A stretch of DNA of 32,000 nucleotides from Erysipelotrichaceae bacterium (lineage in GTDB: Bacteria; Bacillota_I; Bacilli_A; Erysipelotrichales; Erysipelotrichaceae). A model generated the notes under the pieces. It was not told the DNA's origin. It ran no database searches and saw only the letters and a list, made by a program, of their open reading frames with translations. Positions 5,859-28,906 of the stretch are shown in pieces; within the stretch, counting starts at the first letter, position 1, and the number at the start of each line of letters is the position of its first letter. The stretch covers positions 240,001 to 272,000 of the forward strand of contig OY760660.1 in assembly GCA_963663995.1 (NCBI GenBank), in the 5' to 3' direction. Made by a program: the position numbers and the translations under genes.

Positions 5859-5932
5859 GCGGATGTAGTTCAATGGTAGAACTTCAGCCTTCCAAGCTGA
5901 CTACGTGGGTTCGATTCCCATCATCCGCTCCA
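5859..5932 (+). tRNA. tRNA-Gly (anticodon TCC); its 3' end is the att core of the downstream islands
   Basis: Acceptor GCGGATG/CATCCGC, anticodon stem CAGC/GCTG with loop CTTCCAA, T-arm GTGGG-TTCGATT-CCCAT, encoded CCA. The last 17 nt recur four times downstream. Confidence 0.9.
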
Positions 5933-5943
5933 ATAGTCAAATT

Positions 5944-5967
5944 AGCCCTTAAATAAAGGGTTTTTTT
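5944..5967 (+). terminator. Terminator hairpin after tRNA-Gly
   Basis: CCCTT (5946-5950) pairs with AAGGG (5956-5960), followed by T7. Confidence 0.55.
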
Positions 5968-5980
5968 ATGCTTAAAAAAA

Positions 5981-6000
5981 AGTGCAACGGAAAGTGCAAC
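5981..6000 (+). repeat. Paired AGTGCAAC direct repeats (candidate arm-type recombinase sites, left arm of island 1)
   Basis: AGTGCAAC at 5981-5988 and 5993-6000. The same pair recurs at 17253-17270 near the other island end. Confidence 0.5.
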
Positions 6001-6061
6001 GCTCATATTGAAAATTAAAAGAAGAATATTTCTAATATTCTTCTTTATTTTACAAGTAATA

Positions 6062-7366
6062 TTACTCAAATGATTTTTGCATTTTCTTTTCTTTTTCTTT
6101 AAACATATGTGCATAAATGTCTTCTACCATTCTTTGTGTATTTCCAAGACTATCTGCAACATCTTTTGAATTATAACCTTCATCTATTAGCGTCGATGCA
6201 CTACTATGTCGAAAATCGTGTAATCTCATATGCTCTAAACCAGCTTCTTTTAAGTATTTTTCTTCATATCTTCTTACAGTAGTAGGACTGAGTCTGACTT
6301 GTCCCTGTCTACGTTTAGCGGTTGTAAAACTGGAGAATAATGGTAATTTACTACTATAAATACCTTTTTCTTTATAATAATTTATTAAGTTCATTATATG
6401 ATGATGAGCAATATCACCCACGTATTTTTCGCGTGTACTATTTTCGGTTTTTGTTTCTGTTATTAAATTGTTAACATTATCCCAATTATTTTTAATATCT
6501 AATATGCGTTTTTCAGGATCGTAGTCTTCAACTAAAAGAACTAAGCATTCTCCAATTCTCATTGACAGCGTATATAAAATTGAATAGATTGCTAGATCTT
6601 GGAGTTTTTGCAATTGATTAATCTTACCATTTTTATTGGTATGACACTCAATTGTTTTCATTAAATGTTTGAATTGTTCTTTATCGATAATTTGGTATTT
6701 CAGTTTTTCTTTTGTTTTAAAACTACTTTTAGTTATAGTGAATTTTTCAAAATATTTAAATGGATTAACTTCAATATAATCTTGATTTTTTGCATATGTG
6801 AAAATTGATTTGAAAAGTGTTTGGATATTTATTAAAGTGCTCTTGGATAATCCATAAGTTACTTCTTTTTGTGAACCAGCATATTTCGTGTATGTTGCAC
6901 TCTGTAAATAATCACGCCATTCTTCGATATCCTCTTTTTTAATTTTATCTATTGATTTAGTGATATTTTTATAATCTTCTAGTTTTAATCCGTGTAGTTT
7001 GTTTTTGTCAATTCCTGGTAATAAAAAATTAGGAAGAATATGTTTTAGTGCTTTTGTTGATAAGTCATAATGACTTCTTTCTTTATGCTTTTTGAAATCA
7101 ACCTTTTTGTCTAGATATTCAATAAACACTGAAGCAATCGATTTTGAACACATTGATAGAACTTGCTCAGGATTTTGTAACTGTTCTTTTAAAAGTTCTA
7201 AGGCTGTTTCTGCTTCATCTTTACCCCATTTCATGCGCCCTTTTCTTACTTTATGAGTTTTTTTATTTTCATCTTTATAGACTAAATAATAACCCCACAT
7301 TGACGAACCGTTTCTTGTGATTTGCTTTGTTTCTTCCTTTACAACTTTAGTTAACATGTGCTTCAT
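6062..7366 (-). CDS. int: Tyrosine-type site-specific integrase
   Basis: C-terminal catalytic signature: SMRIGE (box I Arg), HDFRHSSAS (H-x-x-R), and DIYAHM (Tyr nucleophile region). N-terminal arm-binding-like region WGYYLVYKDENKKTHKVRKGRMKWGKDEAE. Sits next to a tRNA. Confidence 0.9.
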   Translation of the reverse strand: MKHMLTKVVKEETKQITRNGSSMWGYYLVYKDENKKTHKVRKGRMKWGKDEAETALELLKEQLQNPEQVLSMCSKSIASVFIEYLDKKVDFKKHKERSHYDLSTKALKHILPNFLLPGIDKNKLHGLKLEDYKNITKSIDKIKKEDIEEWRDYLQSATYTKYAGSQKEVTYGLSKSTLINIQTLFKSIFTYAKNQDYIEVNPFKYFEKFTITKSSFKTKEKLKYQIIDKEQFKHLMKTIECHTNKNGKINQLQKLQDLAIYSILYTLSMRIGECLVLLVEDYDPEKRILDIKNNWDNVNNLITETKTENSTREKYVGDIAHHHIMNLINYYKEKGIYSSKLPLFSSFTTAKRRQGQVRLSPTTVRRYEEKYLKEAGLEHMRLHDFRHSSASTLIDEGYNSKDVADSLGNTQRMVEDIYAHMFKEKEKKMQKSFE

Positions 7367-7553
7367 CTTTCTTTTCCAAATCTACATCTAGACCACCAGT
7401 TTTTTCTAAAAAATCTAAGTTGATTTTTAACTCTTTGATAGCTATATCAGTTGGAATTAAAGCTCTACTATAATTTTCAAAAACATCGTAATTAATTTTT
7501 GATTGTATTTCTTTAATAATTTTTCTTGCAGAAGGTAATACAAGTACCTTTGA
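7347..7553 (-). pseudogene. Start-less 3' gene fragment upstream of int
   Basis: 69 stop-free codons (…ARKIIKEIQSKINYDVFENYSRALIPTDIAIKELKINLDFLEKTGGLDVDLEKKDEAHVN*) with no ATG/GTG/TTG start. The stop overlaps the int start. A run this long is unlikely by chance in AT-rich DNA. Confidence 0.3.
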
Positions 7554-7785
7554 CTATGTTAATAATCAAATCGTTAAGAAAACGGATGCGCTAGGAAATG
7601 AAGAACGCATTCAATATGATCGAAATAACCAAGTTATCGAAACAAAGACAGTCGATCATGTTTTAGGAACCATCGCACAAAAAACATTCACGTATGATGG
7701 AGTCGGAAATAAACTATCCGAAACAGACCTCTATGGAAATCAAACTCACTATAGCTATGATGCCAATGGCAATCTTTTAAGAAGC

Positions 7786-10700
7786 ATGAGTGATGTTTTA
7801 GATGCGAATTTAGAAAAAGCGACTGCAACAACACAATATGAATACGATGCAGCCAATCGCTTGATTGCCGAGATTGATCCTTATGGTAAACAAACGCTGA
7901 CTGAATATGATGGAATGGGTCGAATTCTAACCATCACAACAAAAGCACCTAATACTGTAGATATTTTAGAAGTCGCTTATCAATATGATGAAAATGGGAA
8001 TGTCATTGAAAAAACAGAAAGTGGGGCTGTTAGCACTTATGTTTATAATGAACTCAATGAGTTGATTGAAGAAATAACACCTACCAGTCTTCATATCTTT
8101 TATACTTATGATCGCAATCATCGTTTGATTAGCACAGCGAAAACTTCATCAGAAGTTTATAATGCAGAAGCATCTGACTTAAGAGTAACGAGTCAAAAAT
8201 ACGATTATCTTGGCCGTCTTGTTGATAGTATGGATGAATTAGGACGTCATCAATTGATTCGTTATGATGCATATGGAAATGTTAATGCAAGCATTAGTTA
8301 TGATGGGCAGTTTGTCAGAAATACATATAGCGCTAACAACCAACTTGAAATCAGCATTGATGCGCGAGGTAATAAGACTGAATATCACTATAATGAACTC
8401 AATCAACTTGTTTCAATCATTGATGATGAAGGAAATATCAGTCGATTTGTTTATGATGCACTTGGTAATATCATTCAAAGTGAAAATGCTTTAGGAGAAA
8501 TCCAAAGTTTTGAAGTTGATATGTATGGCAATATCACACGTCAAGTTGATGCATTAGGGCATGTCATCACATCATCCTACGGACCTCAATCCCTACTTAA
8601 AGAGCAAATCACCTTTGATTCTGAACAAAATGAATTACTTAGAACCATTTATACCTATGATTTACTAAATCGTTTAATCAAAGAGAAAACAATTTATACC
8701 AATCCTCTGACCAATTCTCAAGAAATCACGGTTGTGCAAAATATGTATGACATTCTTGGAGATATGGTAAAGCACGTTGATGCGCGCAATTATGAAACAA
8801 GTTACGTGTATAACTTTGCCCATCAAGTCATGCAAATCGATTATCCTAATGGTCTTAAGGTTCAAAATACCTATGATCAAGATACAAAACTACTCATAGA
8901 AACAAAGAAAATTGATACGACCTTAGTCAATAGTGATCGCATCAATCAATTTGAATACAATGCTTTTGGTGAAATCATCCAAGAGACTTATGCAAACAAC
9001 AGTTTCAAGACAAATGACTATGGTCATGCAGGTGAACTCTTAAGTGAAAGCTTCTCTAACGATGATTTAGTTTCTTCATCTGATGATTACATTAAAACTT
9101 ACCAATATGATGAAAATGGACGTTTAGTAGGCATATCTGATAATGCAAACTACAATGAGTCAACAGATACTTATGCATCACAAACACTAGAGTTAAGAAC
9201 ATACAATAGCTTTGGCGATTTGGCCTCTGTTACCACACAAAGTGGTCTTGTCACAGAATATAGTTATGATCACTTTGGTCGAAAAATCGAAGAACGTGTG
9301 AAAGATGTTTTAGTTGAAACCAGTGTAAATGGAAGTCTTGTAAGTTCAACACAAGATTTAACGACATCCTATAGTTATGATAAACTCAGTCGAGTTACTC
9401 AAATGGTTTATCCAAATGGACTAACAGAATCATCTGTTTATGATGCAAGTGGTAATATCTTATCTAAATCAAGTTCAGATAATATAACAACAAAGACTGA
9501 ATCTTATGTCTATGATGCACTCAATCATCCAATAAAAGTCATCTACGCAAATTTGGATGAAACGAATTCCATTTATAATGCTTTAGGACAACTAGTCAAA
9601 ACCATTACAACGAGTGGTGAAAGCACCATTTATACCTATGATACTAATGGCAATTTGATCAAAAAGGAAATCTTTACCTCTAATGATCAATTAGCTCAAA
9701 AAACAGAATATGTCTATGATGGCATGAATCAACTCACTCAAACAAAAGAATTAAGAGTTGTTGATAGTATTGAATCTTATGCCCTAACAACCAATACCTA
9801 TAATGTATTTGGCGATTTAGAATCTGTCCAAGATCCAAAAGGATATCTTGTTGAATATGCCTATGATGAAATGGGAAATCAAATCAAAATTACCTATGCA
9901 TCAGAAAACGAAATCAATATGACTTATACAGCCAGTGGTTTATTAAGCGAAAAGACATATTCAACTAAGAATACAGATCCTTTCAACCTCTTTACCAGCC
10001 ATGAAGTTTATACTTACCTGATTGATGGAAAACTCGCTAGCTTCAGTGATAACCCTCCAACATCCAGCAGTGAAAGTCACAAGTCAGTTGTTTACAGCTA
10101 TGAAAATGGTGTTTTAAGTCAAGTTGAAACAAAACTCAGCTCTATGAGTGGAACCCTTGAAACCATAACGAATTGCGATCGTGTATCGTACAGCTATGAT
10201 GCTTTAGGAAGAGTCACGACAATGAGTGATTTAAATGGTCATACAAGCACTCATTATGATGCACAAGGCAATATCAGTGGAGTTGAGCGTATTAATGAAA
10301 CTGTACAATTGGATTTAAACTTCAATGAAGTCAGTCGTTCAACTACAAGTAGTAGCCTTGTTCAATATACTTATGATAAATGGGGCAATCAAACAAGCAT
10401 CATCTATCCAGATGCAAGCAGTGTTACTAAGACTTATGATGTGATGAATCGTTTAACATCTGTGAGTGATGGTGTGGATGTGACAAGCTATGTTTATGAC
10501 AACCAAAATCAAACAGTTACAGAAACCCATTTAGATGGTAGTCAAAAAGTCACAAGCTACCAATTAGGTAAAACAATCAGTGTAGTCTCAAGCCATTATG
10601 ATGCATTCTATGACACACAAATAGTAGATTTCTCACAAATCTTGACCTATGATACTCAACAAAACGTCATTCATGAAGAAAGACTTCAAAATGGTGAAAC

Positions 10701-12777
10701 AACGATTATTGATAATACATACAATGATCGTGGTGAATTGACTCAAAGTCATCAAACAGAAGGACTAAGAGAGACAATCTACTCTTATCAAAGTAATATC
10801 TTTGGCAATAAGAGTCATTTAACTGAATATTATTATGATGGTGATCTCGTCTTTAGTGAATCCACCAGCATGACCTATAACCATCTCAATCAACTTGAGA
10901 CTTCGATTACATCAGGTGTGACTACAAACTACAGTTATGATGATTATGGTAACCTCATTGAAGAGAATGATGGAACCCATAGTATTACCTATACCTATGA
11001 CTTAAATAACAAGTTGATAGGTGTAGTCGATGGTTCTAGTAGCTTAAGTTTCATTTATGATGGAGCAGGTAATCGATTAAGTAAGGTTGTTGATAGTATA
11101 CAAGTTGACTATGTCAATGACATCACTGAAGACAATACCAATGTCTTAAGTTATCAAGTAGACTCAGCTACTACAAACCTTGTCTATGGCAATGAATTAC
11201 TCAGTGAAAACAGTGTTTTCTATTTAAGCGATGCTTATGGGAATATTGTTCAACATGGAAGTGAATCCTATGCTTATGATCCTTATGGATCACTTACTCA
11301 AGGAAGTATTGATAGTATTAATGAAGTCGGGTACAAAGGTGAAGTACATGATACCAGTGATTTACAATACCTAAGAGCTAGAACCTATAGTACCAAACTT
11401 CATCAGTTCCTAAGTGAAGATACCTATACAGGTCAAGCAGGATCACCACTCTCACAAAACAGATACCTCTTTGCGATGAATAATCCATTTAAGTATTCTG
11501 ATCCTAGTGGGCATTACTTTGTGGAAGAGGATGTTGTCTTAACAGGAACACAAACAGCTCAAGCGATTCAAACGTCGTATGCAAAAGCAAATCCAACCTT
11601 TGATTACGCAGTAACTACACCAGTTACAACAACAACGACCACAAACGTTGTAAGTAATACAGTTTACAATCCAGTAAATTACACTAGCCCAGTCATAACA
11701 AGTTCCGGTTCTATTTATGCACAATCACAAGCAGGACCAACCTATTCTGGTTATAACAATTATCAATTACTACATTCTTATCCAACCAATGTATCAAATA
11801 CAAAGTCAGCTACAGCCCAAAGAGATAAGAATGTTGTAGAGAAACTTATTGAATTTGAAAACGATGCTAACCATGCATCAATCGCAAAAGGAACATTGAA
11901 TGTTATTGCAGGTGTTGTTGGTGTAGGTATTGGAATCATTGCGCTAGCAGGAATCGCAGCGGCTACATTGACAGCTGCGCCAGCCATTATTTTGGCTTCT
12001 GCTGCTGTTGGTTCAATTGCTTATGGAACATCGAATACCGTTGAAGGCATTAATCAAATCAAGCTTGGAACACAAGGTAAAGGAAGTGAAAGAGCCTTTA
12101 ATCCATTACGAGATACTGTGTTTAAAGACAACGAAGGTCTATATAACGCTATTGGAATAGTCAGCACATTACTTACTTCTGGGGGTTTATCTGCGATAAG
12201 TGAAGGAGGAAATCTTGCATCTGTAGCTTCTAGTGTTATGATGAATACAACTAAACAAGTAGCTACCGGTTCTGTTTCAATAGGTATAGGAAAAGTCGCT
12301 GAAGAGGTTACAGGAAGTAAGACAATTGGCTTTGCGACAGGCTTGATAACTGCAGCTATTGCATATCCTCAGATTAGCAAGGGCATGGATAAAGCAGTTA
12401 GTGCAATTAGTGTATTTAAAGAAAAAGTTGCTAATGCGAATATTATATTTGAAAGCAACACTACAACGAGTATAGGTTTTGATAGTTTCAATGATGCTAA
12501 AAAATTCTTAGGTTCACCAGGGGTGGGTAATCAATGGCATCATATCGTGGAACAATCACAAATACAAAAGTCAGGCTTCGCAACACAATTAATCCAAAAC
12601 ACAGATAATCTTATCCCTGTCGATAAAGCTACTCATGCAAACATAAGTGGATACTATTCTTCAAAGCAAGTGTTTACAGGAGGGAAAACAGTTAGAAACT
12701 GGTTGATTGGACAAAGTTACGAAAAGCAATTTGAGTTTGGAATACAAAAACTAATAGATTTCGGGGTATTTAAATAA
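7786..12777 (+). CDS. RHS/YD-repeat polymorphic toxin, apparently 5'-truncated, with a C-terminal WHH-type HNH/EndoVII nuclease domain
   Basis: Dozens of YD repeats (YxYDxxGN/R). RHS repeat-associated core ends with LQYLRARTYSTKLHQFLSEDTY...NRYLFAMNNPFKYSDPSGH (DPSGH at 11500-11514). Then an S/T-rich linker, a Gly/Ala-rich hydrophobic module, and the terminal GNQWHHIVEQ...THANISGYY (WHH at 12535-12543). The frame is open from 7492 and YD-repeat sequence already starts near 7531, upstream of the first Met at 7786. No signal peptide or N-terminal domain. Confidence 0.85.
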   Translation: MSDVLDANLEKATATTQYEYDAANRLIAEIDPYGKQTLTEYDGMGRILTITTKAPNTVDILEVAYQYDENGNVIEKTESGAVSTYVYNELNELIEEITPTSLHIFYTYDRNHRLISTAKTSSEVYNAEASDLRVTSQKYDYLGRLVDSMDELGRHQLIRYDAYGNVNASISYDGQFVRNTYSANNQLEISIDARGNKTEYHYNELNQLVSIIDDEGNISRFVYDALGNIIQSENALGEIQSFEVDMYGNITRQVDALGHVITSSYGPQSLLKEQITFDSEQNELLRTIYTYDLLNRLIKEKTIYTNPLTNSQEITVVQNMYDILGDMVKHVDARNYETSYVYNFAHQVMQIDYPNGLKVQNTYDQDTKLLIETKKIDTTLVNSDRINQFEYNAFGEIIQETYANNSFKTNDYGHAGELLSESFSNDDLVSSSDDYIKTYQYDENGRLVGISDNANYNESTDTYASQTLELRTYNSFGDLASVTTQSGLVTEYSYDHFGRKIEERVKDVLVETSVNGSLVSSTQDLTTSYSYDKLSRVTQMVYPNGLTESSVYDASGNILSKSSSDNITTKTESYVYDALNHPIKVIYANLDETNSIYNALGQLVKTITTSGESTIYTYDTNGNLIKKEIFTSNDQLAQKTEYVYDGMNQLTQTKELRVVDSIESYALTTNTYNVFGDLESVQDPKGYLVEYAYDEMGNQIKITYASENEINMTYTASGLLSEKTYSTKNTDPFNLFTSHEVYTYLIDGKLASFSDNPPTSSSESHKSVVYSYENGVLSQVETKLSSMSGTLETITNCDRVSYSYDALGRVTTMSDLNGHTSTHYDAQGNISGVERINETVQLDLNFNEVSRSTTSSSLVQYTYDKWGNQTSIIYPDASSVTKTYDVMNRLTSVSDGVDVTSYVYDNQNQTVTETHLDGSQKVTSYQLGKTISVVSSHYDAFYDTQIVDFSQILTYDTQQNVIHEERLQNGETTIIDNTYNDRGELTQSHQTEGLRETIYSYQSNIFGNKSHLTEYYYDGDLVFSESTSMTYNHLNQLETSITSGVTTNYSYDDYGNLIEENDGTHSITYTYDLNNKLIGVVDGSSSLSFIYDGAGNRLSKVVDSIQVDYVNDITEDNTNVLSYQVDSATTNLVYGNELLSENSVFYLSDAYGNIVQHGSESYAYDPYGSLTQGSIDSINEVGYKGEVHDTSDLQYLRARTYSTKLHQFLSEDTYTGQAGSPLSQNRYLFAMNNPFKYSDPSGHYFVEEDVVLTGTQTAQAIQTSYAKANPTFDYAVTTPVTTTTTTNVVSNTVYNPVNYTSPVITSSGSIYAQSQAGPTYSGYNNYQLLHSYPTNVSNTKSATAQRDKNVVEKLIEFENDANHASIAKGTLNVIAGVVGVGIGIIALAGIAAATLTAAPAIILASAAVGSIAYGTSNTVEGINQIKLGTQGKGSERAFNPLRDTVFKDNEGLYNAIGIVSTLLTSGGLSAISEGGNLASVASSVMMNTTKQVATGSVSIGIGKVAEEVTGSKTIGFATGLITAAIAYPQISKGMDKAVSAISVFKEKVANANIIFESNTTTSIGFDSFNDAKKFLGSPGVGNQWHHIVEQSQIQKSGFATQLIQNTDNLIPVDKATHANISGYYSSKQVFTGGKTVRNWLIGQSYEKQFEFGIQKLIDFGVFK
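10745..11585 (+). repeat. Copy 1 of a 0.84-kb direct repeat (3' part of the RHS core)
   Basis: Collinear with 13415-14255 (offset 2670). I counted 4 mismatches in the first ~520 bp, with mismatches much denser towards the 3' end. Confidence 0.9.
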
Positions 12778-13136
12778 TGAAAGATATCAAAAATATAATT
12801 GACGAATACCGAAATAATGCTGTCTTACACTGGAATGCATCACGTGATGGAAATTATAAAGCTGCTAACAAAAGTTATTCGAAGTTAACCAAAATATATA
12901 AACAATTGATTCAAAGTGAGAAACTAGGTGATAATATTTTATTAAATTTACTAAATGATCAGAATTTTGCTGTTCAATTATGGGCAGCCTCACATTGTCT
13001 TGCATTAGAAAAATCAAAAGAAGTTGCAGTTCAAAAGTTAGAATTTATTTCTAAAATGAATCCAAATGAAGCACCAAGTTTTGAAGCAAGAATGGTACTG
13101 AATGAATGGCGAGAAAAAGGTAGATTGACTTTTTAA
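12777..13136 (+). CDS. Cognate immunity protein candidate for the WHH nuclease tip (DUF2019/HEAT-like helical protein)
   Basis: The start overlaps the toxin stop (TAATG). 119 aa and all-helical. The pattern RDGNYKAANKSYSKL...LLNDQNFAVQLWAASHCL...EARMVLNEWREKG resembles DUF2019-type immunity proteins as I recall them. Confidence 0.6.
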   Translation: MKDIKNIIDEYRNNAVLHWNASRDGNYKAANKSYSKLTKIYKQLIQSEKLGDNILLNLLNDQNFAVQLWAASHCLALEKSKEVAVQKLEFISKMNPNEAPSFEARMVLNEWREKGRLTF

Positions 13137-13416: not shown

Positions 13417-14255
13417 AGTCATCAAACAGAAGGACTCAGAGAGACAATCTATTCTTATCAAAGCAATATCTTTGGCAATAAGAGTCATTTAACTGAATAT
13501 TATTATGATGGTGATCTCGTCTTTAGTGAATCCACCAGCATGACCTATAACCATCTCAATCAACTTGAGACTTCGATTACATCAGGTGTGACTACAAACT
13601 ACAGTTATGATGATTATGGAAACCTCATTGAAGAGAATGATGGAACCCATAGTATTACCTATACCTATGACTTAAATAACAAGTTGATAGGTGTAGTCGA
13701 TGGTTCTAGTAGCTTAAGTTTCATTTATGATGGAGCAGGTAATCGATTAAGTAAGGTTGTTGATAGTATACAAGTTGACTATGTCAATGACATCACTGAA
13801 GACAATACCAATGTCTTAAGTTATCAAGTAGACTCAGCTACTACAAACCTTGTCTATGGCAATGAATTACTCAGTGAAAACAGTGTTTTCTATTTAAGCG
13901 ATGCTTATGGGAATATTGTTCAACATGGAAGTGAATCCTATGCTTATGACCCTTATGGAGCACTCACTGAAGGAAGTATTGATAGTGTTAATGAAGTCGG
14001 GTACAAAGGTGAAGTACATGATACCAGTGATTTACAATACCTAAGAGCTAGAACCTATAGTACCAAACTTCATCAATTCCTAACTGAAGATACCTATACT
14101 GGTCAAGCAGGATCACCGCTCTCACAAAACAGATACATCTTTGCATTAAACAATCCATTTAAGTATTCTGATCCTACTGGGCATTACTTTGTGGAAGAGG
14201 ATGTTGTCTTAACAGGTTCACAAACAGCTCAAGCAATTCAAAATTCATATGAAAA
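13415..14255 (+). repeat. Copy 2 of the 0.84-kb direct repeat (5' part of the orphan RHS cassette)
   Basis: See 10745-11585. A TAA at 13414-13416 immediately precedes the homologous reading frame. Confidence 0.9.
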
Positions 14256-15642: not shown

Positions 15643-15917
15643 TAAACGAGAAAGAATTTGGAGATAAGTATTTAGAATTAATTCAAATTGTTGAAAACGA
15701 ATTAGATTTAGTAAATAAAGGTTTGAATAAGAGATCAAGTCAACAACTAAAAACTATAATAATTGATTTGAAAAAAATGAATATTATCAAGGATTTAAAT
15801 CAATTTATGCCAAGTTATCCTAGATTTATTGTAGATTCTTGGGATTTTGACGATTTGCTAGGCATAGAATTACTAAAATTCTATGAACTCTATAAAAAAA
15901 TACAAATTAATAACTAG
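15639..15917 (+). CDS. Candidate immunity protein for the orphan toxin tip
   Basis: ATG overlaps the toxin stop (ATGA at 15639-15642), with GGAGG at 15624-15628. 92 aa, small and helical. The ORF-track start at 15606 lies inside the toxin gene. Confidence 0.6.
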   Translation: MINEKEFGDKYLELIQIVENELDLVNKGLNKRSSQQLKTIIIDLKKMNIIKDLNQFMPSYPRFIVDSWDFDDLLGIELLKFYELYKKIQINN

Positions 15918-16722: not shown

Positions 16723-17223
16723 ATGAGAAATTGGTTAACAGATAAAATACCAGAAGAAGGATATGAATACAAAGGCTGTTCAGATATTCGAAATATTTTC
16801 GATGAGTGTATGTATGATTATTCAGAATTTAATGGCAAAATTTGTGATATATGTGAAACAAATATAGGGTTTATTTCACATCGTTTTTTTCATCCAATGC
16901 ATATATTAAGTGTACATTCATGTCATAGTTGTGCACAAAAGATTTTGGGTGATTCAAAAATACTTATAGAAAATGAAAAAGAGCAAAATAGAATATATGA
17001 TTTAAAAGTTAAATTTTTAAAACTTGATGGACAAGAAAAACCTAATGGAAATATTGTGATTAACTATGAGGGTAAGATAATAACCATTATGAAAAGCAAA
17101 TATAGTAATGGATATGGAGTAGTTTACAATAATAATTTTATTTGGAAATACTCTGGTAAAACTATTAAAAATATAGAAGTTGCAAAATTAGTTGCATTTA
17201 AGAAATTTATAATTTATGAGTAA
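16723..17223 (+). CDS. Cys/His-rich hypothetical protein (possible zinc-binding)
   Basis: 166 aa with CDICE (C-x2-C) and CHSC (C-x2-C) pairs. No family recognised. Last gene of island 1. Confidence 0.4.
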   Translation: MRNWLTDKIPEEGYEYKGCSDIRNIFDECMYDYSEFNGKICDICETNIGFISHRFFHPMHILSVHSCHSCAQKILGDSKILIENEKEQNRIYDLKVKFLKLDGQEKPNGNIVINYEGKIITIMKSKYSNGYGVVYNNNFIWKYSGKTIKNIEVAKLVAFKKFIIYE

Positions 17224-17252
17224 TTCTGAAAGATTATTTAGTGTTTTAAAAA

Positions 17253-17270
17253 AGTGCAACAAAGTGCAAC
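17253..17270 (+). repeat. Paired AGTGCAAC direct repeats (right arm of island 1)
   Basis: AGTGCAAC at 17253-17260 and 17263-17270, about 105 bp before the att copy. Matches the pair at 5981-6000. Confidence 0.5.
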
Positions 17271-17373
17271 ACCAAACCCTTTCTTTAGTTTCTTTTATTT
17301 GTTTTTATTTCATAAAGTGTCTTAAAAATTACCTTATTTTTAATAAAAAATGTTATTTGTGGTTGGTGTAGTA

Positions 17374-17390
17374 TCCCATCATCCGCTCCA
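17374..17390 (+). repeat. att core copy 2 (17/17 identical to the tRNA-Gly 3' end)
   Basis: TCCCATCATCCGCTCCA, followed by the hairpin AAGCCC-ATAAAA-GGGCTT plus a T-run (17401-17423). Confidence 0.9.
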
Positions 17391-17474
17391 TATGACATTT
17401 AAGCCCATAAAAGGGCTTTTTTTGTTGTAAAATCGAGTAAAACTATATAAAATTCTATAAAATTTAAATCTATA

Positions 17475-17502
17475 TGACCCAGTTGGGTCATATCTGGGTC
17501 AC
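17475..17502. repeat. CTGGGTCA motifs, left arm of islet 2
   Basis: TGACCCAG (inverted, 17475-17482), TTGGGTCA (17483-17490), CTGGGTCAC (17494-17502). Confidence 0.6.
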
Positions 17503-17686
17503 AGAGATAACTCAAAATCATATTTTATCTAACATTTTTATATTATATTAGTGAAATATGATTAAATATTAACTTGTCTTTACAATGTTGAGACTATTAA
17601 TTAACAATAGATTCATTAAGTAAAATTTTATAGGAATGATGCTATAATTTAATTGTTATTACAAATAGTTGTTTTGGGGGTATTCA

Positions 17687-18406
17687 ATGTTGAAATTAGA
17701 TAGAAAATACATGCTTATTTATGTGTTTGTACTATTTTACTCTATATTTCCTAAGTTTATATTTAATAATACAATCGAATTTACATATACTTTCATGATA
17801 TTTATTACGCTTTTAATAATAGGCACTTTTATTTTTATGTACATTGATCTTCTCAAAAATAAAGATGTACTGAAAAATATAAAAAATGTAAGCACAATTG
17901 ATAAAGTATATTCTTTAATTAAGATAATTGTTATAAACTTGTTTGTTTTTATAACAGCTTTCTTGTTGTATTTTATCTCAGGCAATGTAATCAGACTTAT
18001 TACTGAGCTTATGAAAAATAATAGTGTTAATATATCTGCAATCTTTGATTTTCATCCAAGATTTAATATATTTGTTATTGTGATCGCTGGTATTTTTGGT
18101 TCACTATATCCTGTTTTCGTTATTAGTTTATATCTGATTTTTATTATTCTATATTTGTCAAAAGAAAGTAAATATAATTGGTACAATTCTCATTTCATGC
18201 TTTTCGTTTTAGTTTCGATGACTTTGTATTTTATATACACAATTTGGGAATTTTTTATATCAATTAATTCAACTTTTAGTATATTTCGTTTAGATTATTT
18301 TCTTTACTCTTTAGTGATAACAGTTTTTCCATATTTACTTTTTGTTAAACGAAAGAAATTAATGAATCTTATTTTCAAATACACATGTAATATTAACTAT
18401 TTCTAA
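17687..18406 (+). CDS. Polytopic membrane protein, unknown function
   Basis: About 7 hydrophobic segments and no recognisable motif. The ORF-track start at 17669 is a TTG; the first ATG is at 17687. Confidence 0.5.
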   Translation: MLKLDRKYMLIYVFVLFYSIFPKFIFNNTIEFTYTFMIFITLLIIGTFIFMYIDLLKNKDVLKNIKNVSTIDKVYSLIKIIVINLFVFITAFLLYFISGNVIRLITELMKNNSVNISAIFDFHPRFNIFVIVIAGIFGSLYPVFVISLYLIFIILYLSKESKYNWYNSHFMLFVLVSMTLYFIYTIWEFFISINSTFSIFRLDYFLYSLVITVFPYLLFVKRKKLMNLIFKYTCNINYF

Positions 18407-18525
18407 AATTTAATATCATTATATTTTTCTTATCAAGTTCAAACTATATCACTAGCTGATGATGATTGTATTTATAATAATAGAAATTAGTTTTCATTAA
18501 AGAAAATTAAAAAGGGGGATTAATT

Positions 18526-18987
18526 ATGAAAATAGGTATTAAAAAAACAGTTTATACATGCGCTTTATTTTCAGTTGGATTATTTATACTCAATTTTTAT
18601 GTTTCTCTGTACATGTATATGGAAGAGGCTGCATACAAAATTGAAGTAAACAAAGTAGTGCAACTACATTACCTTGCGATGATCATATGTTTTATTTTTG
18701 GAATTCTTATTGAATCAAACCGTATCATTGCGTTTTTACAGAAAAAAATTCAATTTAAATTGACTGCAGTATTCATAATCGGTTTGATAATGTTTTCAAT
18801 CGGATTAATTTCAGCCACAACTTATATAAGTTGGTTTGGATTAGAGTTTTGGCAACCATTTCCTAGAGGAAGAATAGGTATTAACATGTTTGTTGGAATA
18901 TTAACTAAAACAATTAGTATTCAATCCATATTAAGTGTTGTTGGAGGTACTTTGGTTGTTAAAGGATTATTTCCAGACAACTATTAA
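18526..18987 (+). CDS. Polytopic membrane protein, unknown function
   Basis: 153 aa with about 4 TM segments. Strong RBS AAGGGGGA 7 nt upstream. Confidence 0.55.
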   Translation: MKIGIKKTVYTCALFSVGLFILNFYVSLYMYMEEAAYKIEVNKVVQLHYLAMIICFIFGILIESNRIIAFLQKKIQFKLTAVFIIGLIMFSIGLISATTYISWFGLEFWQPFPRGRIGINMFVGILTKTISIQSILSVVGGTLVVKGLFPDNY

Positions 18988-19085: not shown

Positions 19086-19105
19086 CTGGGTCACAGCTGG
19101 GTCAC
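19086..19105 (+). repeat. CTGGGTCAC x2, right arm of islet 2
   Basis: Copies at 19086-19094 and 19097-19105 (11-bp period). This begins a ~145-bp block conserved with 22275-22416 and 24285-24427. Confidence 0.7.
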
Positions 19106-19211
19106 GAAATACCAAATATCTTAATAAATCTTATTAATTTATGTATAATCATGTTATAGAATATTCAGTTTTATTGCGTTATATTTGGTTTTACAAGTGG
19201 TAATTGGTAAG

Positions 19212-19228
19212 TCCAATCATCCGCTCCA
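19212..19228 (+). repeat. att core copy 3 (16/17)
   Basis: TCCAATCATCCGCTCCA, followed by the hairpin AAGCCT-ATAAAA-AGGCTT plus a T-run (19239-19261). Confidence 0.85.
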
Positions 19229-19409
19229 TAAGAGATTTAAGCCTATAAAAAGGCTTTTTTTGTTATAAAATTTAACAAAACTGCATAAAAATTCATGAAA
19301 CATATATCTTTATGAGCCAGATACACATCGTATATTTTTTATGTAACTACATGAACTATGATTATGATTATTTTTTTGAAACACTGTTCTTTAAAAGTAT
19401 CCGTTGGAG

Positions 19410-20648
19410 TTAATTGCTATACATCCAATTCAAAAGGGTTATTTTCTCTTTATAATAAATGATGGCTACTTTGTACTTGCTTCGATTTTCATAATATGTA
19501 ATCAGTCGATCTAGTACGAATTCATAGTTTTCAAAATTCCGTGTATCTTTAGTTATTGAATGAAGTTGAAGCAGTTTAGATTCAAGTTTAGTTTCATTGT
19601 TGCTATATTCACACTGTATAATCTCCATTTCGAGTTTGTACATTGGATCAGTAAAACTGAATATTTTATTTTGATAGAGTTGATTAGCTTCTTGTGTCTG
19701 ACTTAATTGATAAAGACATGAACACTTAATAAAGATTCCATTTTCTGATAATTCTTGTTCAAGTTCTATTTGTTTTAAATATTCTAATGAGTCTTTATAT
19801 TCTTTATTTAGAAATGAGAACCAAGCTAGATTGTAGAGGATGACAATCTCTGTTTCTGTATCTAGAGTTGTCGAAAGAATCCGTTTGTACATTTTTTGTG
19901 ATGTTCTAAAATGTCCTAACTTTGAATTTATAGAAGCACTATGGATTTGCATATGTGTTAGTCGTTTTAGATTGCGTGTTTTAAGAAAATAATCCTCTGC
20001 AATTTCACTCAAAGACAAAGCTTTATTTAGTTTTCCATAATACGTATAAATAAACGATGCATGGTAATGAATTAATCCAGCGCTACTTTCTCTAGTTTCA
20101 TATTGAAGGGCACGATCAATCGTATTAACCGCTTCTTGAATTTGATTGTTTTTAAGAAGTTCAATCGCTTTGTAATCATAGTATAGCTGTTTGAGTTCAA
20201 TCTCAAAAAGATGGACATTTTTAATCACATATTGATATGAATCAAGATCATAATGAAGACCTAATATATGCAGGATATAAAAGATTGTATGATATTGATT
20301 CATAACTTCTGAGTAGAAGATATACTGATTGGCTAATCTTACTTGATGAATCAATCTTTCAATTTCTATTTCATTATCGAAAATGATAGATTCTAATAGA
20401 TCATTCAAATCTTCATTGAGTTTATCTTCAATATAAAGCACTGATTCTAAGTTAATATTTAAATATCGTGCTAAAGTATGAATGTTTTCTTGATTGAGAT
20501 CTCGTAATCCAATTTCGTATTTAGAAAGACTTTGATAGCTGTAACTTGTTAGTTCTGATAACTCTCTAAGCGTAAGATTTTTCTGCTTACGAGCATCAGA
20601 AAGAAGTTTTAAGATATTGATGTTTTGAAAAGTTAGTTTGTCGCCCAT
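19410..20648 (-). CDS. RNPP/Rgg-like transcriptional regulator (N-terminal XRE-type HTH and C-terminal TPR-like helical repeats)
   Basis: HTH: KQKNLTLRELSELTSYSYQSLSKYEIGLRDLNQENIHTLARYLNI. This is followed by ~350 aa of helical-repeat sequence (e.g. AGLIHYHASFIYTYYGKLNKALSLSEIAEDYF, ILYNLAWFSFLNKEYKDSLEYL). The ORF-track start at 20714 is a TTG; the ATG at 20648 (MGDKLTF) is conserved in the paralogue. Confidence 0.7.
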   Translation of the reverse strand: MGDKLTFQNINILKLLSDARKQKNLTLRELSELTSYSYQSLSKYEIGLRDLNQENIHTLARYLNINLESVLYIEDKLNEDLNDLLESIIFDNEIEIERLIHQVRLANQYIFYSEVMNQYHTIFYILHILGLHYDLDSYQYVIKNVHLFEIELKQLYYDYKAIELLKNNQIQEAVNTIDRALQYETRESSAGLIHYHASFIYTYYGKLNKALSLSEIAEDYFLKTRNLKRLTHMQIHSASINSKLGHFRTSQKMYKRILSTTLDTETEIVILYNLAWFSFLNKEYKDSLEYLKQIELEQELSENGIFIKCSCLYQLSQTQEANQLYQNKIFSFTDPMYKLEMEIIQCEYSNNETKLESKLLQLHSITKDTRNFENYEFVLDRLITYYENRSKYKVAIIYYKEKITLLNWMYSN

Positions 20649-20753
20649 AATTAGTATAATTATACAATTCAAATTTGAAATTGTCCGAAATTTGTAGACA
20701 AGATCGTTTCTCAAATTAGATATAATTGATATATAAGAAAGGTGGGTGGCTGA

Positions 20754-20813
20754 ATGATTGAACTCTACTACTTAATAATCGATTTGTTTGATATGGTATT
20801 GCCTAAGTTTTAA
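20754..20813 (+). CDS. Unannotated 19-codon hydrophobic peptide ORF (candidate SHP-like signalling pro-peptide)
   Basis: AAAGGTGGGTGG RBS 4 nt upstream of the ATG. Encodes MIELYYLIIDLFDMVLPKF. Divergent from the regulator across a 105-bp intergenic region. The paralogue at 22856-22915 differs at 5 nt: 4 synonymous and 1 Leu-to-Ile. Confidence 0.55.
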   Translation: MIELYYLIIDLFDMVLPKF

Positions 20814-20865
20814 GACTAATAAGAATTTATTAAAATGTCATGATTATGACAATGAAAGGGAGTTT

Positions 20866-21948
20866 ATGAGAATTCTAAAAAGTTTATTTGTTATATTGTT
20901 TTTCATTAGTTTGACTAGTCCAGTGAATGCGAGCACTGATGAGATTACATTTCAAGATAATTTCAATTATAATGGGCACGATTATAAAATGGTAATAGAG
21001 TATTTGAATCCACAAAGAGAATTAAATGATTTTTTGTCGAATCATTCCGAATTTTATAATGATATTTATTTAGCTTTTGGTGGCATTAGTTTAACTGAAA
21101 GTAGTATTTCTTCATTTAAACTGAAAGAAAATGAATTATATACAAATAATTTGCAAAAATATTTGGAATTCTCCGATGATTTTGATGATTTCAATTCATT
21201 CTTAGATATTTACGAAAACACATTTATTAATAGCTCCATAAGAAGTTATGTGAATTTAAAATCAGTTGATGAAAATATTAACTATATTTTCGAAAATTTA
21301 CCATATGATGAAGCTGTATTGTTTAGAAGTAATAATTTAACTTTATTATCAAGTACAATAAGTAAAAGTACTAGAGCTATAAAGAATATATCAGCAGGTG
21401 TTTCCTATGCTCAACAATATGCTTTAGCTCCTAATACAATTGACAAATATAATTATTTTCTAGGCACGGATTGTACAAATTTCGGATCACAAATAATGGA
21501 AGCGATGGGTGTCTTACAAAACTATCCTGGAACTAATGATGCATATAAAGGTTGGTGGCATAAAATTACAAAAACTTATAATCCTTATACAAACTCTTAT
21601 GATTATACACACTATTATTCATCTTCCTTTATTAATACACAATCATTTGCATTGTATTTTGGTATTTACAATAAATACACATCATTTTTAACATTCAGTC
21701 AAAATGTAAAAGTGGGTGATTTTATTTTGATTGATGAAAGTAGAGATGATGCTTGGGATCATCTTGGATTTGTAACATCAATATCACCAAGTTCGAGTAC
21801 TTATATTGATGAGAATGGCGTAAGTAGAACGTATTATAATTTTAAAGTTGCTCAGCATTCAAGCAATTATCATGCATTTGTAAATTCTAGTACAAATAAT
21901 TGGGAACAAAAAAACAATACAAGAACATATGGTATTCTTAAGAGATAA
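20866..21948 (+). CDS. Secreted protein with a C-terminal putative amidase domain (Amidase_6 / NlpC-P60-like Cys-His)
   Basis: GGGAG RBS, then MRILKSLFVILFFISLTSPVNA|S signal peptide. The C-terminal half has YAQQYA...GTDCTNFGSQIMEAMGV (21469-21483 encodes DCTNF), VGDFILID...WDHLGFV and VAQHSSNY, matching the DCTNFvSQ...H pattern of the putative amidase domain family. The ORF-track start at 20788 is an upstream TTG in non-conserved sequence. Confidence 0.65.
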   Translation: MRILKSLFVILFFISLTSPVNASTDEITFQDNFNYNGHDYKMVIEYLNPQRELNDFLSNHSEFYNDIYLAFGGISLTESSISSFKLKENELYTNNLQKYLEFSDDFDDFNSFLDIYENTFINSSIRSYVNLKSVDENINYIFENLPYDEAVLFRSNNLTLLSSTISKSTRAIKNISAGVSYAQQYALAPNTIDKYNYFLGTDCTNFGSQIMEAMGVLQNYPGTNDAYKGWWHKITKTYNPYTNSYDYTHYYSSSFINTQSFALYFGIYNKYTSFLTFSQNVKVGDFILIDESRDDAWDHLGFVTSISPSSSTYIDENGVSRTYYNFKVAQHSSNYHAFVNSSTNNWEQKNNTRTYGILKR

Positions 21949-22195
21949 GTGGAAAATAATCGTTTGTACTATTTGGCTAATAGTATTTATATTTGATTAT
22001 GGTTCTGTGTTAAACGGAAAAAAACCTACTTTTATTGTTCCTGTTGAATTTCAGTTTAATCTTGATGAGGCCAAATATCTGTATATAGGATTGGGGTATG
22101 GGGTTGTCTATAAAGAATATCCTCCTGAAGTCATAATTGTTCAGGCTGACTTCTATATTTTATGTTTTAAGATACAGTCAATAAATTCTTACTGA
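21929..22195 (+). CDS. Small membrane-anchored protein (possible immunity/partner of the amidase-domain protein)
   Basis: 88 aa with one N-terminal TM (IIVCTIWLIVFIFDYG). Overlaps the upstream gene by 20 nt. Confidence 0.4.
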   Translation: MVFLRDKWKIIVCTIWLIVFIFDYGSVLNGKKPTFIVPVEFQFNLDEAKYLYIGLGYGVVYKEYPPEVIIVQADFYILCFKIQSINSY

Positions 22196-22274: not shown

Positions 22275-22294
22275 CTGGGTCACAACTGGGTCAC
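22275..22294 (+). repeat. CTGGGTCAC x2, right arm of islet 3
   Basis: Copies at 22275-22283 and 22286-22294. Confidence 0.7.
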
Positions 22295-22399
22295 GAAATA
22301 CTAAAAATCTTAGTAACCTTATAAATTCATGTATAATCTTGTTATAGAATATTCAGTTATATTGCGTTTTATCAGGTTTTACAAGAGAAACATGGTAAG

Positions 22400-22416
22400 T
22401 CCCATCATCCGCTCCA
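22400..22416 (+). repeat. att core copy 4 (17/17)
   Basis: TCCCATCATCCGCTCCA, followed by the hairpin AAGCCT-ATAAAA-AGGCTT plus a T-run (22427-22450). Confidence 0.9.
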
Positions 22417-22588
22417 TAAGAGATTTAAGCCTATAAAAAGGCTTTTTTTTGTCGTAAAATTGAACAAAACTACATAAAAATTCATAAAACTTATATCTTT
22501 ATGACCCAGATGGTTAATATATATTTTTATGTGACTACCTGAATTATGATTATGAATATTTTATTTGAAACGATGATCTTTAAAAATA

Positions 22589-22750
22589 TTATAGGGAGTT
22601 AATTGTTATACCAATTTCGTATTTAGAAAGACTTTGATAGCTGTAACTTGTCAGTTCTGATAACTCTCTAAGAGTAAGATTTTTCTGCTTACGAGTATCA
22701 GAAAGTAGTTTTAAGATATCAATTTTTTGAAAAGTTAGTTTGTCGCCCAT
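22589..22750 (-). pseudogene. Truncated RNPP-like regulator (HTH only, 53 codons)
   Basis: MGDKLTFQKIDILKLLSDTRKQKNLTLRELSELTSYSYQSLSKYEIG is near-identical to the N-terminus of the 19410-20648 product, then a new short tail. The ~1.08-kb TPR-coding part is missing, and the junction is at CCAATT (22611-22616). Confidence 0.7.
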
Positions 22751-22855
22751 AATTAACATTATTATACAACTCAATTTTGAAAATGTCCGAAATTTGTAGA
22801 CAAGATCGTATCACAAATTAGATATAATTTATAAATGGGAAAGGTGGGTGGCTAG

Positions 22856-22915
22856 ATGATTGAACTCTATTACATAATAATCGATCTGTTTGATATGGTT
22901 TTACCTAAGTTTTAA
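22856..22915 (+). CDS. Second copy of the 19-codon hydrophobic peptide ORF
   Basis: The same RBS (AAAGGTGGGTGG). Encodes MIELYYIIIDLFDMVLPKF. Confidence 0.5.
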   Translation: MIELYYIIIDLFDMVLPKF

Positions 22916-22967
22916 GACTAATAAGAATTTATTAAAATGTCATGATTATTACAATGAAAGGGAGTTT

Positions 22968-23624
22968 ATGAGAATTCTAAAAAGTATATTCGCATTATTG
23001 TTTTTCGTTAGTTTATTAAGTCCAGTCAGTGCGAGTACTAATGAGATATTTGTAGGTGAAACTACTGTCACAAATATAGAAATTGATGGGATTAATTATA
23101 CATATACACAATATTCCACAGAATCAAGTAATTTTATGTTAGTAGATGATGGTAATTCTATAGATATATTTGAATATAATTTACAAACAAATATATTATT
23201 AATGAATAATGAACTATTTGGGATTACTAGGTTTACTACATCATATAGTAGAGCAGCTTCTTGCACTATTCCTTTACTAACTGGATTAAGAGATGAACAA
23301 GGGAATTTAGCTGTTTATGAAGGTTGTGCAACTTCAAATATTCCAGTTGGAACTGCTACAACAGCAGCACTTGCTGCAAAATCAATTTTCACAGGTGTGC
23401 CTGTAATTGTTATTCAGAACAAACTATTATCATACCTTGCAAAAACAGTACTACCTCTATATTTAGACAAAGCAATGTCATCTGCAAGACAACAGTATAG
23501 ATCTAAATATACTATGCTAGATCCGTATTCTGGATTGTATAAATATAAGAGATTATATAATTCATATATATATGTAATAAATTATAAATTGTATGGTCCA
23601 AGTGCGTCAGGTTGGTTCTTTTAA
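22968..23624 (+). CDS. Secreted protein of unknown function (shares its signal peptide with the amidase-domain protein)
   Basis: MRILKSIFALLFFVSLLSPVSA|S is homologous to the 20866 leader. The mature part is unrelated and no family was recognised. Confidence 0.55.
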   Translation: MRILKSIFALLFFVSLLSPVSASTNEIFVGETTVTNIEIDGINYTYTQYSTESSNFMLVDDGNSIDIFEYNLQTNILLMNNELFGITRFTTSYSRAASCTIPLLTGLRDEQGNLAVYEGCATSNIPVGTATTAALAAKSIFTGVPVIVIQNKLLSYLAKTVLPLYLDKAMSSARQQYRSKYTMLDPYSGLYKYKRLYNSYIYVINYKLYGPSASGWFF

Positions 23625-23635
23625 TTCGCTAAATT

Positions 23636-23932
23636 ATGAAAAAAATTCAATGTCCACATTGCCAATTTAAATTAAATAAATCGACTATTCTTAGTTTGAT
23701 TTTGTTTGATGTCAATTGTCCAAATTGTAAAAGTCGCTTAGGATTTATTAAAGGAAAAAGAACACAACCAATAATAGTTTTGATTATATTAATAAGTTAC
23801 AGTGTAATAAAAACAGAGTTGATAATTTATATAGCATATTCTTTCCTAATATGGAACTTAGGTTCGTTATGGGATATTTACAAAAATGGATTATATGAGA
23901 TTGATTCACATAATAGTTGTGAAAATGATTGA
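23636..23932 (+). CDS. Zinc-ribbon membrane protein
   Basis: CPHC...CPNC pair at the N-terminus, followed by two TM segments. 98 aa. Confidence 0.45.
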   Translation: MKKIQCPHCQFKLNKSTILSLILFDVNCPNCKSRLGFIKGKRTQPIIVLIILISYSVIKTELIIYIAYSFLIWNLGSLWDIYKNGLYEIDSHNSCEND

Positions 23933-24284
23933 TTAATAATCTTTAAATTAATAAAAAACATAAAATATAATATGATAAAAAAGCAAAGATTAGTAACTTG
24001 TTAGAAGTTTATTGTAATGTAAAAGAACTAGTTACAAGTGAATGCTATTGATGATTTTATAAGCTAAGTGAACCATTCAATGAATCACTTGGTTTTAATT
24101 TAGAGTTGATTTATTATTATTTTCGTTTGAAATGTAATTTAAAATATTTTGTCTTGTTTTTGTAATTTTCCACCTAATTATAATTAATTAGGATATTTGA
24201 GTTAATGGTTTATGGTGGTGAAAAGATATATGTAAGTATTAATACTATGTAAATAGAAGAAAAATATAAATTATGCTTAATGTG

Positions 24285-24304
24285 CTGGGTCACAACTGGG
24301 TCAC
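24285..24304 (+). repeat. CTGGGTCAC x2, right arm of islet 4
   Basis: Copies at 24285-24293 and 24296-24304. Confidence 0.7.
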
Positions 24305-24410
24305 GAAATACTAAATATCTAAATAAATCTTATTAATTCATGTATAATCTTGTTATAGATTATTCAGTTATATTGCGTTTTATTTAGATTTACATGAGGT
24401 AAATGGTAAG

Positions 24411-24427
24411 TCCCATCATCCGCTCCA
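24411..24427 (+). repeat. att core copy 5 (17/17), distal boundary of the accessory region
   Basis: TCCCATCATCCGCTCCA, followed by the hairpin AGCTCC-TTATA-GGAGCT plus a T-run (24439-24461). Confidence 0.9.
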
Positions 24428-24537: not shown

Positions 24538-24548
24538 GAGGTCTAGGT

Positions 24549-28887: not shown

Positions 28888-28906
28888 TTATTTAGGACGA
28901 TTTATT

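Follow-up and report, generated by a model that had tools for sequence, protein, structure and literature searches.

Tandem arrays of integrative islands behind the 3' end of a single target gene are a documented form of genome organization. A further such array is described here in a 32,000-nt stretch of an Erysipelotrichaceae bacterium genome (assembly GCA_963663995.1, contig OY760660.1, positions 240,001–272,000 of the forward strand; hereafter the window), where four segments follow a tRNA-Gly(TCC) gene. In streptococci, integrase-less cis-mobilizable elements (CIMEs) that retain attL and attR attachment sites stand in tandem with an integrase-bearing integrative and conjugative element (ICE) at the 3' end of the target gene, as described for ICESt1/ICESt3 and the associated CIMEs (Pavlovic 2004, Bellanger 2011, as summarised in PMC5704250). 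During this accretion the incoming element integrates into an att site of the resident one and the internal junctions are chimeric; elements with a common target but only distantly related integrases can also stand in tandem (PMC5704250). Tandem islands are likewise known at ssrA of Dehalococcoides: of 31 islands, 15 lack the integration module and were proposed as CIMEs, and the module, where present, adjoins attL (PMC3146451). Tycheposons of Prochlorococcus target tRNA genes; their tandem elements are separated by partial tRNA copies, and newcomers push older elements outward, leaving degenerate remnants behind (bioRxiv 10.1101/2020.12.28.424599).

With a probability of roughly 0.8, the block in the window is likewise a tandem array that grew by accretion, as elements integrated site-specifically, one after another, at the 3' end of tRNA-Gly(TCC), and two unrelated element families share its core sequence. 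Like the streptococcal ICESt–CIME tandems, it contains integrase-less, att-bounded units beside an integrase-bearing island, with chimeric internal att sites. Unlike in those tandems, the neighboring integrase island belongs to a different arm-site family, three CIME-like units of 1.8–3.2 kb without conjugation or mobilization genes stand in a row, and the target is tRNA-Gly in an uncultured Erysipelotrichaceae-like lineage. The Dehalococcoides islands are similar in their tandem arrangement behind a small-RNA gene, in being bounded by direct repeats of its 3' end (about 20 bp there) and in the position of the integration module next to attL; they differ in using a serine recombinase (DsiB, CcrB-like) and a tmRNA target, whereas tyrosine integrases with arm-type sites and a tRNA are involved here. 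With tycheposons the array shares the tRNA target, the partial-tRNA separators, the outward displacement by newcomers and the remnants, but tycheposons carry characteristic replication and integration modules in marine cyanobacterial hosts, while most units here are very small, lack an integrase and carry toxin, immunity and regulator genes. Since multi-deep, repeat-bounded island arrays are already documented, the array belongs to a known kind: it reads as a clear case of integrative islands accreting in tandem and not as a new integron-like system. It stands in a poorly sampled lineage and has an orphan integrase and a newly delineated att-site family.

The tRNA-Gly(TCC) gene closes a Val-Thr-Tyr-Gln-Lys-Gly tRNA cluster (ARAGORN; Rfam tRNA, 74 bits). 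Its last 17 nucleotides, TCCCATCATCCGCTCCA, are present in five plus-strand copies starting at 5916, 17374, 19212 (one mismatch, C to A), 22400 and 24411, against 0.00 matches expected at up to two mismatches in dinucleotide shuffles; rescanning the window at three mismatches gave no extra copy. Terminator-like hairpins begin 11–12 nt 3' of all five copies, which delimit segments 1–4 of 11.5, 1.8, 3.2 and 2.0 kb. An original prediction, made from the sequence of this stretch, had reported the five copies with their coordinates and orientation, a hairpin near each of them, these segment sizes and a recombinase gene confined to the first segment, and on all these points it was correct. It had also taken the hairpins to mimic a tRNA end with its terminator; they are better read as replacement terminators for the tRNA operon, one brought by each element. 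The repeats exceed 17 nt: copies 3–5 are alike over about 125–215 nt upstream and copies 2–4 over about 110 nt downstream, and every internal copy lies within a junction of about 330 nt made up of the right end of the left segment, the core and the left end of the right segment. The substitution in copy 3 (19212–19228) creates a 5-bp stem (ATTGG/CCAAT) with the adjacent upstream sequence, where copies 4 and 5 have only 4 bp (ATGG/CCAT); this may be due to chance.

In a lambda-like attP, arm-type integrase sites classically take the form of short repeat pairs, spaced by a helical turn, on both sides of a core. Two such sets occur in the window. The family-1 repeat AGTGCAAC has six matches (0.59 expected), with tandem pairs only at the two ends of segment 1. 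The family-2 repeat CTGGGTCA(C) has nine exact matches (0.36 expected), and its pairs are found only at the ends of segments 2–4: tandem pairs precede copies 3, 4 and 5 by about 115–126 nt, one inverted and two direct repeats follow copy 2 at about 85–112 nt, a single inverted one follows copy 4 and none follows copy 3. In the complete family-2 layout, the right arm would have a direct pair of sites and the left arm, where intact, a direct pair plus one inverted site. Both arms are complete in segment 2; in segments 3 and 4 the right arm and core persist, with the left-arm sites lost or reduced to one.

If attP is written P-O-P' and attB is written B-O-B', a second integration into a resident att site yields internal junctions of the form P(left)-O-P'(right). 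With families 1 and 2 given in parentheses, copy 1 reads tRNA-O-P'(1), copy 2 P(1)-O-P'(2), copies 3 and 4 P(2)-O-P'(2), and copy 5 P(2)-O-flank.

In a related species, contigs with an identical Alr protein (P0024, 57% identical to Alr of the window) occur in two forms. Two of them, L130 and L131 (comparison loci are designated by L numbers), agree at 100% identity through the 12,228 nt that lead up to the last base of the tRNA-Gly 17-mer, and they part two bases beyond it, as site-specific integration predicts. L130 and L133 continue with a family-2 left arm and integrase-less cassettes. L131 and L132 continue with a terminator, two copies of CTGGGTCAC at +65 to +83 and then a 384-aa integrase (Arm-DNA-bind_4 and Phage_integrase domains), past which lies defense-like cargo (DUF6414, AAA_2, HTH-S24, an NgoFVII-like nuclease and WYL). 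Judged by this arrangement, the L131-type enzyme is plausibly the cognate integrase for CTGGGTCAC arms; in a full-length alignment it is 22% identical to the integrase of the window.

A genome collection outside which the source genome lies was scanned with the 18-base pattern of a CTGGGTCAC pair. Most matches were due to chance, in high-GC genomes; the seven real loci, with nine junctions, are from Erysipelotrichaceae UBA8511 (three sites), an uncultured Erysipelotrichaceae, Bacillota SKS3.bin96 and a 2.0-Mb metagenomic chromosome. On UBA8511 contig DPJD01000001.1 (508.8–539.8 kb; L085/L034/L004) the family-2 junctions are 11 and 20 kb apart. A metagenome scan added 16 loci with a family-2 arm. 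In all real loci the pair lies about 125 nt upstream of the 17-mer, or of a variant of it differing at 1–2 bases, and a terminator follows. At more than 35 junctions in related Erysipelotrichaceae-like genomes and metagenomes, several of them beside tRNA-Gly, the family-2 junction bounds unrelated, integrase-less cargo. Family-2 cassettes stand behind the same tRNA cluster, or behind tRNA-Gly, in L098, L100, L130 and L134. L098 has the alr/tRNA-cluster synteny of the window (Alr 51% identical), with a 1.46-kb cassette between tRNA-Gly and a family-2 right arm plus core; in L100, a family-2 left arm comes directly after tRNA-Gly and opens a 4.3-kb cassette that lacks an integrase, at whose far end stand a right arm, a core and another left arm; L134 has four cores in 6.7 kb, bounding cassettes of 1.7, 1.0 and 3.9 kb without an integrase. 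A cassette with a 131/144-aa membrane protein occupies array position 1 in L098 and lies behind another right arm and core in L106. This change of position, together with the strain divergence at the end of the 17-mer (plus two shared bases) in a related species, agrees with the proposal, also made in the original prediction, that the 17-mers are att cores and the block arose by tandem accretion at a tRNA 3' end.

At the DNA level, the window resembles these loci almost exclusively in the tRNA cluster and the junctions, apart from a 313-nt match of the right flank (29756–30068) to L100. BLASTP of the window open reading frames gave no matches in the genome-scan loci and a few distant cargo matches (30–37%) in the metagenome loci, among them an HTH and Amidase_6 pair in the family-2 cassette of L093 that is 37% identical to a segment 3 protein. 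Cargo elsewhere includes Tdi1/SUKH and DUF4304 proteins, agr-like quorum-sensing modules and ABC transporters; Tdi1 is an immunity domain of type VI secretion systems. A recurrent 270-aa protein encoded just upstream of the right arms in several loci was considered as a recombinase and rejected, having only a weak SHOCT domain. Viral contigs yielded nothing for the family-2 right arm and chance matches only for the left-arm palindrome, so nothing points to family 2 being a phage.

Other arm repeats share the same core. In L105, two copies of CCGGGTAAA adjoin an integrase gene after the core, and in L097, L098 and L106 two copies of TGGGGAAAAA are found in the left arms after the core; the distinct arm repeats of the window and its relatives indicate that at least four arm-site families share the 17-bp core. 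Some family-2 right arms (L099, L105, L108) are joined to a variant core, TCCCTTCATCCGCACCA or TCCCATCATCCGCACCA; in L105 the island with the CCGGGTAAA pair and an integrase of another family comes next. An incoming element may have brought this variant core with it.

Under the accretion reading, the 17-mer would be the block of identity common to attB and to attP of the elements. Each integration would regenerate the tRNA end and leave a further core copy on the far side, and every internal copy would be a composite, attP-like junction that includes a replacement terminator for the interrupted tRNA operon. Segment 1 would be a family-1 island with its own arm sites and decaying Rhs toxin/immunity cargo; segments 2–4 would be CIME-like mini-islands, derived by decay from an integrase-bearing family-2 island or dependent on one as satellites. 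The family-2 units would have arrived first, giving a state like that of L100, L130 and L134, and segment 1 last, inserted at the tRNA-proximal core and pushing them outward. No left arm of the window is better preserved than that of segment 2, which resembles the arm directly after tRNA-Gly in L100, L130 and L134; the state before this insertion was therefore probably tRNA-Gly-O-P'(segment 2).

Segments 2–4 appear structurally CIME-like: integration and transfer genes are missing, and att sites are kept, in full by segment 2 and with eroded left arms by segments 3 and 4. Domain searches of the encoded proteins found no recombinase or transfer domains in these segments, and conjugation and mobilization genes are absent from the whole array. 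The adjacent island does not appear to be a related element capable of moving them in cis, as its arm repeats differ and its integrase shares only the above-mentioned 22% identity with the family-2 enzyme. Since AGTGCAAC and CTGGGTCAC differ, the segment 1 integrase is probably not the recombinase of segments 2–4, and their cis-mobilization by segment 1 is unlikely, the more so as segments 3 and 4 have lost most left-arm sites; these two are probably fixed. The L131/L132 island of a related species has an integrase gene together with the family-2 arm 9-mer, at the core used here. Mobilization of segments 2–4 would need a family-2 integrase in trans; none is encoded within the window.

Several observations weigh against simple accretion. 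The role of AGTGCAAC and CTGGGTCAC as integrase arm-binding sites is suggested by position and analogy. The contigs L131 and L132, the one exception to the lack of integrases among the sampled family-2-bounded segments, end inside the island, with its right arm outside the recovered sequence, and the left arm of this island is arranged unlike those of the cassettes. Such a near-universal absence of integrases is more than simple independent decay predicts, and no transitional forms or shared cargo were found between the family-2 units and the integrase-bearing island. Paralogy links segments 3 and 4 (91% identity over 300 nt; 19371–20808 versus 22560–22910), so at least one unit may stem from local duplication and not from a separate integration. 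Finally, the array is not seen in any other genome of its species or genus, since the contigs of all closest relatives (Alr 80–88% identical) stop at the tRNA cluster, short of the array. Most metagenomic contigs with Alr orthologs (L119–L129, L135–L143) likewise end at the tRNA cluster, about 150–700 nt from the adjacent small gene, which suggests that short-read assemblies often lose this hotspot. An approach from the right flank, through the single distant homologue of a 458-aa protein encoded there, gave no comparable array.

The stretch between the right-arm repeats and the core has features of its own. A box, TGTATAAT, resembling an extended -10 promoter element is invariant in all aligned family-2 right arms (three copies in the window; L004–L108) and faces the core and terminator; in the copy-3 arm TTAATA lies 17 nt upstream of it (19121–19149). 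The box predicts a transcript of about 110 nt ending in tRNA 3'-end sequence, but it may just as well serve the att arm as a site of protein binding or bending. Between the box and the core (19150–19228 and equivalents; 3680–3763 in L004) the sequence resembles a decayed 3' half of tRNA-Gly (TACGTAGGG versus TACGTGGG in the tRNA). This stretch also holds a direct repeat, GTTTTA..GTTTTAC, with 10-nt spacing, which could be an excision-factor site.

The lack of integrases in family 2 can also be explained by mobilization in trans, which we consider unlikely but worth serious thought. The family-2 units would then be genuine integrase-less cassettes with a full lambda-type att site, taken up, shuffled and excised by a family-2 integrase encoded elsewhere, so that an integron-like logic would run on unrelated chemistry. 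In an equally unlikely, more elaborate form, the whole junction (two arm sites, the TGTATAAT box, the decayed tRNA half, the 17-bp core, the terminator and three arm sites) would be the recombination site, and toxin, immunity and regulator cassettes of 1–4 kb would be reshuffled at tRNA-Gly by a rarely resident lambda-type integrase. The units are indeed small, from less than 1 kb to 4.3 kb, the same cassette appears at different array positions (L098 and L106), and the single integrase-bearing island sits at the tRNA-proximal position. The right arms, moreover, are much better conserved than the left ones: mean identity is 89% among the other loci, 83–88% among the three copies of the window and 62% on average between the two groups, reminiscent of the array-specific homogeneity of integron attC sites. 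Most comparison loci appear, however, to be from closely related hosts (shared proteins 92–99% identical), and right-arm conservation may simply reflect recent ancestry. The left arms are often decayed, as in relics, both in segments 3 and 4 and in the b and c types elsewhere; if integrase genes generally adjoin the left arm, as they do in L131 and L105, their loss by deletion would damage left arms more than right ones.

Growth of the array by unequal homologous recombination or duplication between the 330-nt junctions, followed by cargo replacement, is improbable as an account of the whole block. It would fit the 91% identity of segments 3 and 4, with their shared regulator remnants and secreted-protein N-terminus, and the fact that the three right arms of the window are closer to each other than to any foreign copy. 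Local duplication probably contributed to the segment 3/4 pair, but it cannot explain segment 1, which is of a different family with arms of its own, segment 2, whose cargo is unrelated to that of segments 3 and 4, or the comparative data, in which related genomes show other cassette sets at the same junctions and diverge from the core.

Like integrons, the array has small units, repeats in one orientation and a tyrosine recombinase gene at its proximal end, and the original prediction had compared it to an integron-style cassette stack. In a platform of this kind the segment 1 integrase would recombine all five copies and stack promoterless cassettes. This comparison does not hold, and such a platform is highly improbable. 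The enzyme is not an IntI (TIGR02249, 34 bits versus a cutoff of 265; PRK15417, 21 bits versus 435), and the arm repeats of its own segment differ from those of segments 2–4. The junctions do not fold as attC sites (z scores of -1.7 and -0.5), their only stable stem being the terminator; lambda-type cores with arm repeats are found in place of attC hairpins. The cassettes contain two or three genes in both orientations, with divergent regulators and promoters of their own and a terminator at each junction, unlike promoterless cassettes driven from a Pc promoter.

A small-RNA gene or dispersed regulatory repeat (promoter, tRNA-like 3' end and terminator) unrelated to integration, which the invariant box and its predicted transcript might suggest, is very improbable and survives as a side issue: the right arm has no Rfam match and no shared fold beyond the terminator, junction arrays start at tRNA-Gly in contigs containing this gene, the junctions bound variable cargo, and their arm repeats match those beside an integrase gene. 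Two loci, L004 and L070, have the right arm and core behind a folate operon and a ybiA-like gene, and the stretches examined there (8 kb and 3.1 kb) contain no tRNA; they represent either captured housekeeping-like genes or a rearranged array.

Segment 1 (5933–17373) has the structure of a tRNA-associated island: its bounding copies are identical 17-mers, the tRNA gene is intact, the integrase gene is at one end, 130 nt from copy 1, and arm repeats are present at both ends. The integrase, the only recombinase encoded in the array, shows the R, HxxR and Y motifs in its translation and is an orphan; besides itself, the protein search returned homologues of at most 30% identity. From these features, segment 1 could be capable of excision through copies 1 and 2 with its own integrase. 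The frame of the main Rhs gene is open from about 7530 and lacks a start codon. The truncated main gene is linked to the orphan Rhs C-terminal toxin cassette by a 300-nt repeat (10745–11044 and 13415–13714, 99% identical), the second copy of which begins 125 nt before this cassette; the region 7530–15917 is a classic displaced-toxin array.

The paralogous segments 3 and 4 differ in their HTH-TPR regulators, the gene of segment 4 being shorter by about 1.1 kb. Their secreted proteins have about 45 N-terminal residues in common, followed by an Amidase_6 domain in one and no known domain in the other, in the manner of a polymorphic secreted effector. Coordinates of all features are listed in Table 1.

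On the left, the array is flanked by core genes (guaA, alr), with Alr relatives at 88, 84, 83 and 80% identity; the source species is a singleton in the protein collection, and exact matches to Alr, to a 244-aa protein of the padR operon and to the integrase led to no contig. The original prediction had core-like genes resume after the fifth copy, which is doubtful. The right flank (24483–30200) encodes a padR operon, DUF975 and DUF2500 proteins and others; GC content remains at 22–29% up to about 30 kb, and among 5.8 billion proteins only one homologue (51% identity) matches the 458-aa padR-operon protein, so this flank is probably accessory rather than core. The sequence next to copy 5 was also considered as a decayed family-2 left arm, which was rejected because local alignment scores were no better than those of shuffles.

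Table 1. Features of the tRNA-Gly(TCC) array in the window (coordinates within the 32,000-nt stretch)
Feature	Coordinates	Strand	Details	Evidence
tRNA-Gly(TCC)	5859..5932	+	last 17 nt (5916-5932) form core copy 1, attL of segment 1	ARAGORN, Rfam, pattern scan
Terminator hairpin from segment 1 left end	5944..5962	+		
Segment 1 left arm, family-1 arm-type direct repeats	5981..6000	+	AGTGCAAC x2, starts 5981/5993	
Tyrosine integrase of segment 1	6062..7366	-	434 aa, intact	Pfam Phage_integrase 6.6e-16, SAM-like domain
Rhs/YD-repeat toxin	7786..12777	+	5'-truncated	RHS_repeat 1.4e-85; Rhs_assc_core
Putative immunity protein	12777..13136	+	homologue (32% identity) in family-2 cassette of L100	weak DUF2019 match
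Orphan Rhs C-terminal toxin cassette and partner	13540..15917	+	cassette 13540-15642; 103-aa partner 15606-15917	
Segment 1 right arm, family-1 arm-type direct repeats	17253..17270	+	AGTGCAAC x2, starts 17253/17263, ~110 nt before copy 2	
Core copy 2	17374..17390	+	hybrid junction: segment 1 right arm, core, segment 2 left arm	
Segment 2 left arm	17401..17502	+	terminator 17401-17418; family-2 sites 17474-17481 (inverted), 17484-17491 and 17495-17502 (direct)	
Segment 2 cargo	17669..18987	+	two membrane-like proteins, 245 and 153 aa	sequence inspection; no family match
Family-2 right arm and core copy 3	19086..19228	+	CTGGGTCAC x2 19086-19105; TGTATAAT 19141-19150; core 19212-19228 (C to A)	
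Segment 3 left-arm terminator	19239..19256	+	family-2 arm sites decayed	
Segment 3 cargo	19410..22195	mixed	HTH_3 and TPR-like regulator 19410-20714 (-); secreted Amidase_6 protein 20788-21948 (+); 88-aa protein	
Family-2 right arm and core copy 4	22275..22416	+	repeats 22275-22294; TGTATAAT 22329-22338	
Segment 4 left arm	22427..22508	+	terminator 22427-22444; sole surviving inverted arm site 22501-22508	
Segment 4 cargo	22589..23932	mixed	truncated HTH regulator (-); secreted 244-aa protein; 98-aa zinc-ribbon-like membrane protein	
Family-2 right arm and core copy 5 (attR of array)	24285..24427	+	repeats 24285-24304; TGTATAAT 24340-24349	
Terminator after last core (copy 5)	24439..24455	+	flank beyond unlike family-2 left arms	

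The locus shows a single tRNA 3' end serving as a hotspot for several unrelated integrase families, with four arm-repeat sets on one 17-bp core. Genes for competition (Rhs toxins, orphan immunity genes, secreted amidases and quorum-type regulators) gather at this hotspot as small, att-bounded units. The logic of arm repeats allows island boundaries and cognate integrases to be assigned from sequence alone in a poorly sampled Bacillota lineage of gut or environmental origin. A trans-mobilized cassette system is not yet required by the evidence; if it proved true, it would constitute a non-integron cassette system, functionally analogous to chromosomal integrons and evolutionarily unrelated to them, that is widespread in an uncultured Erysipelotrichaceae-like clade.

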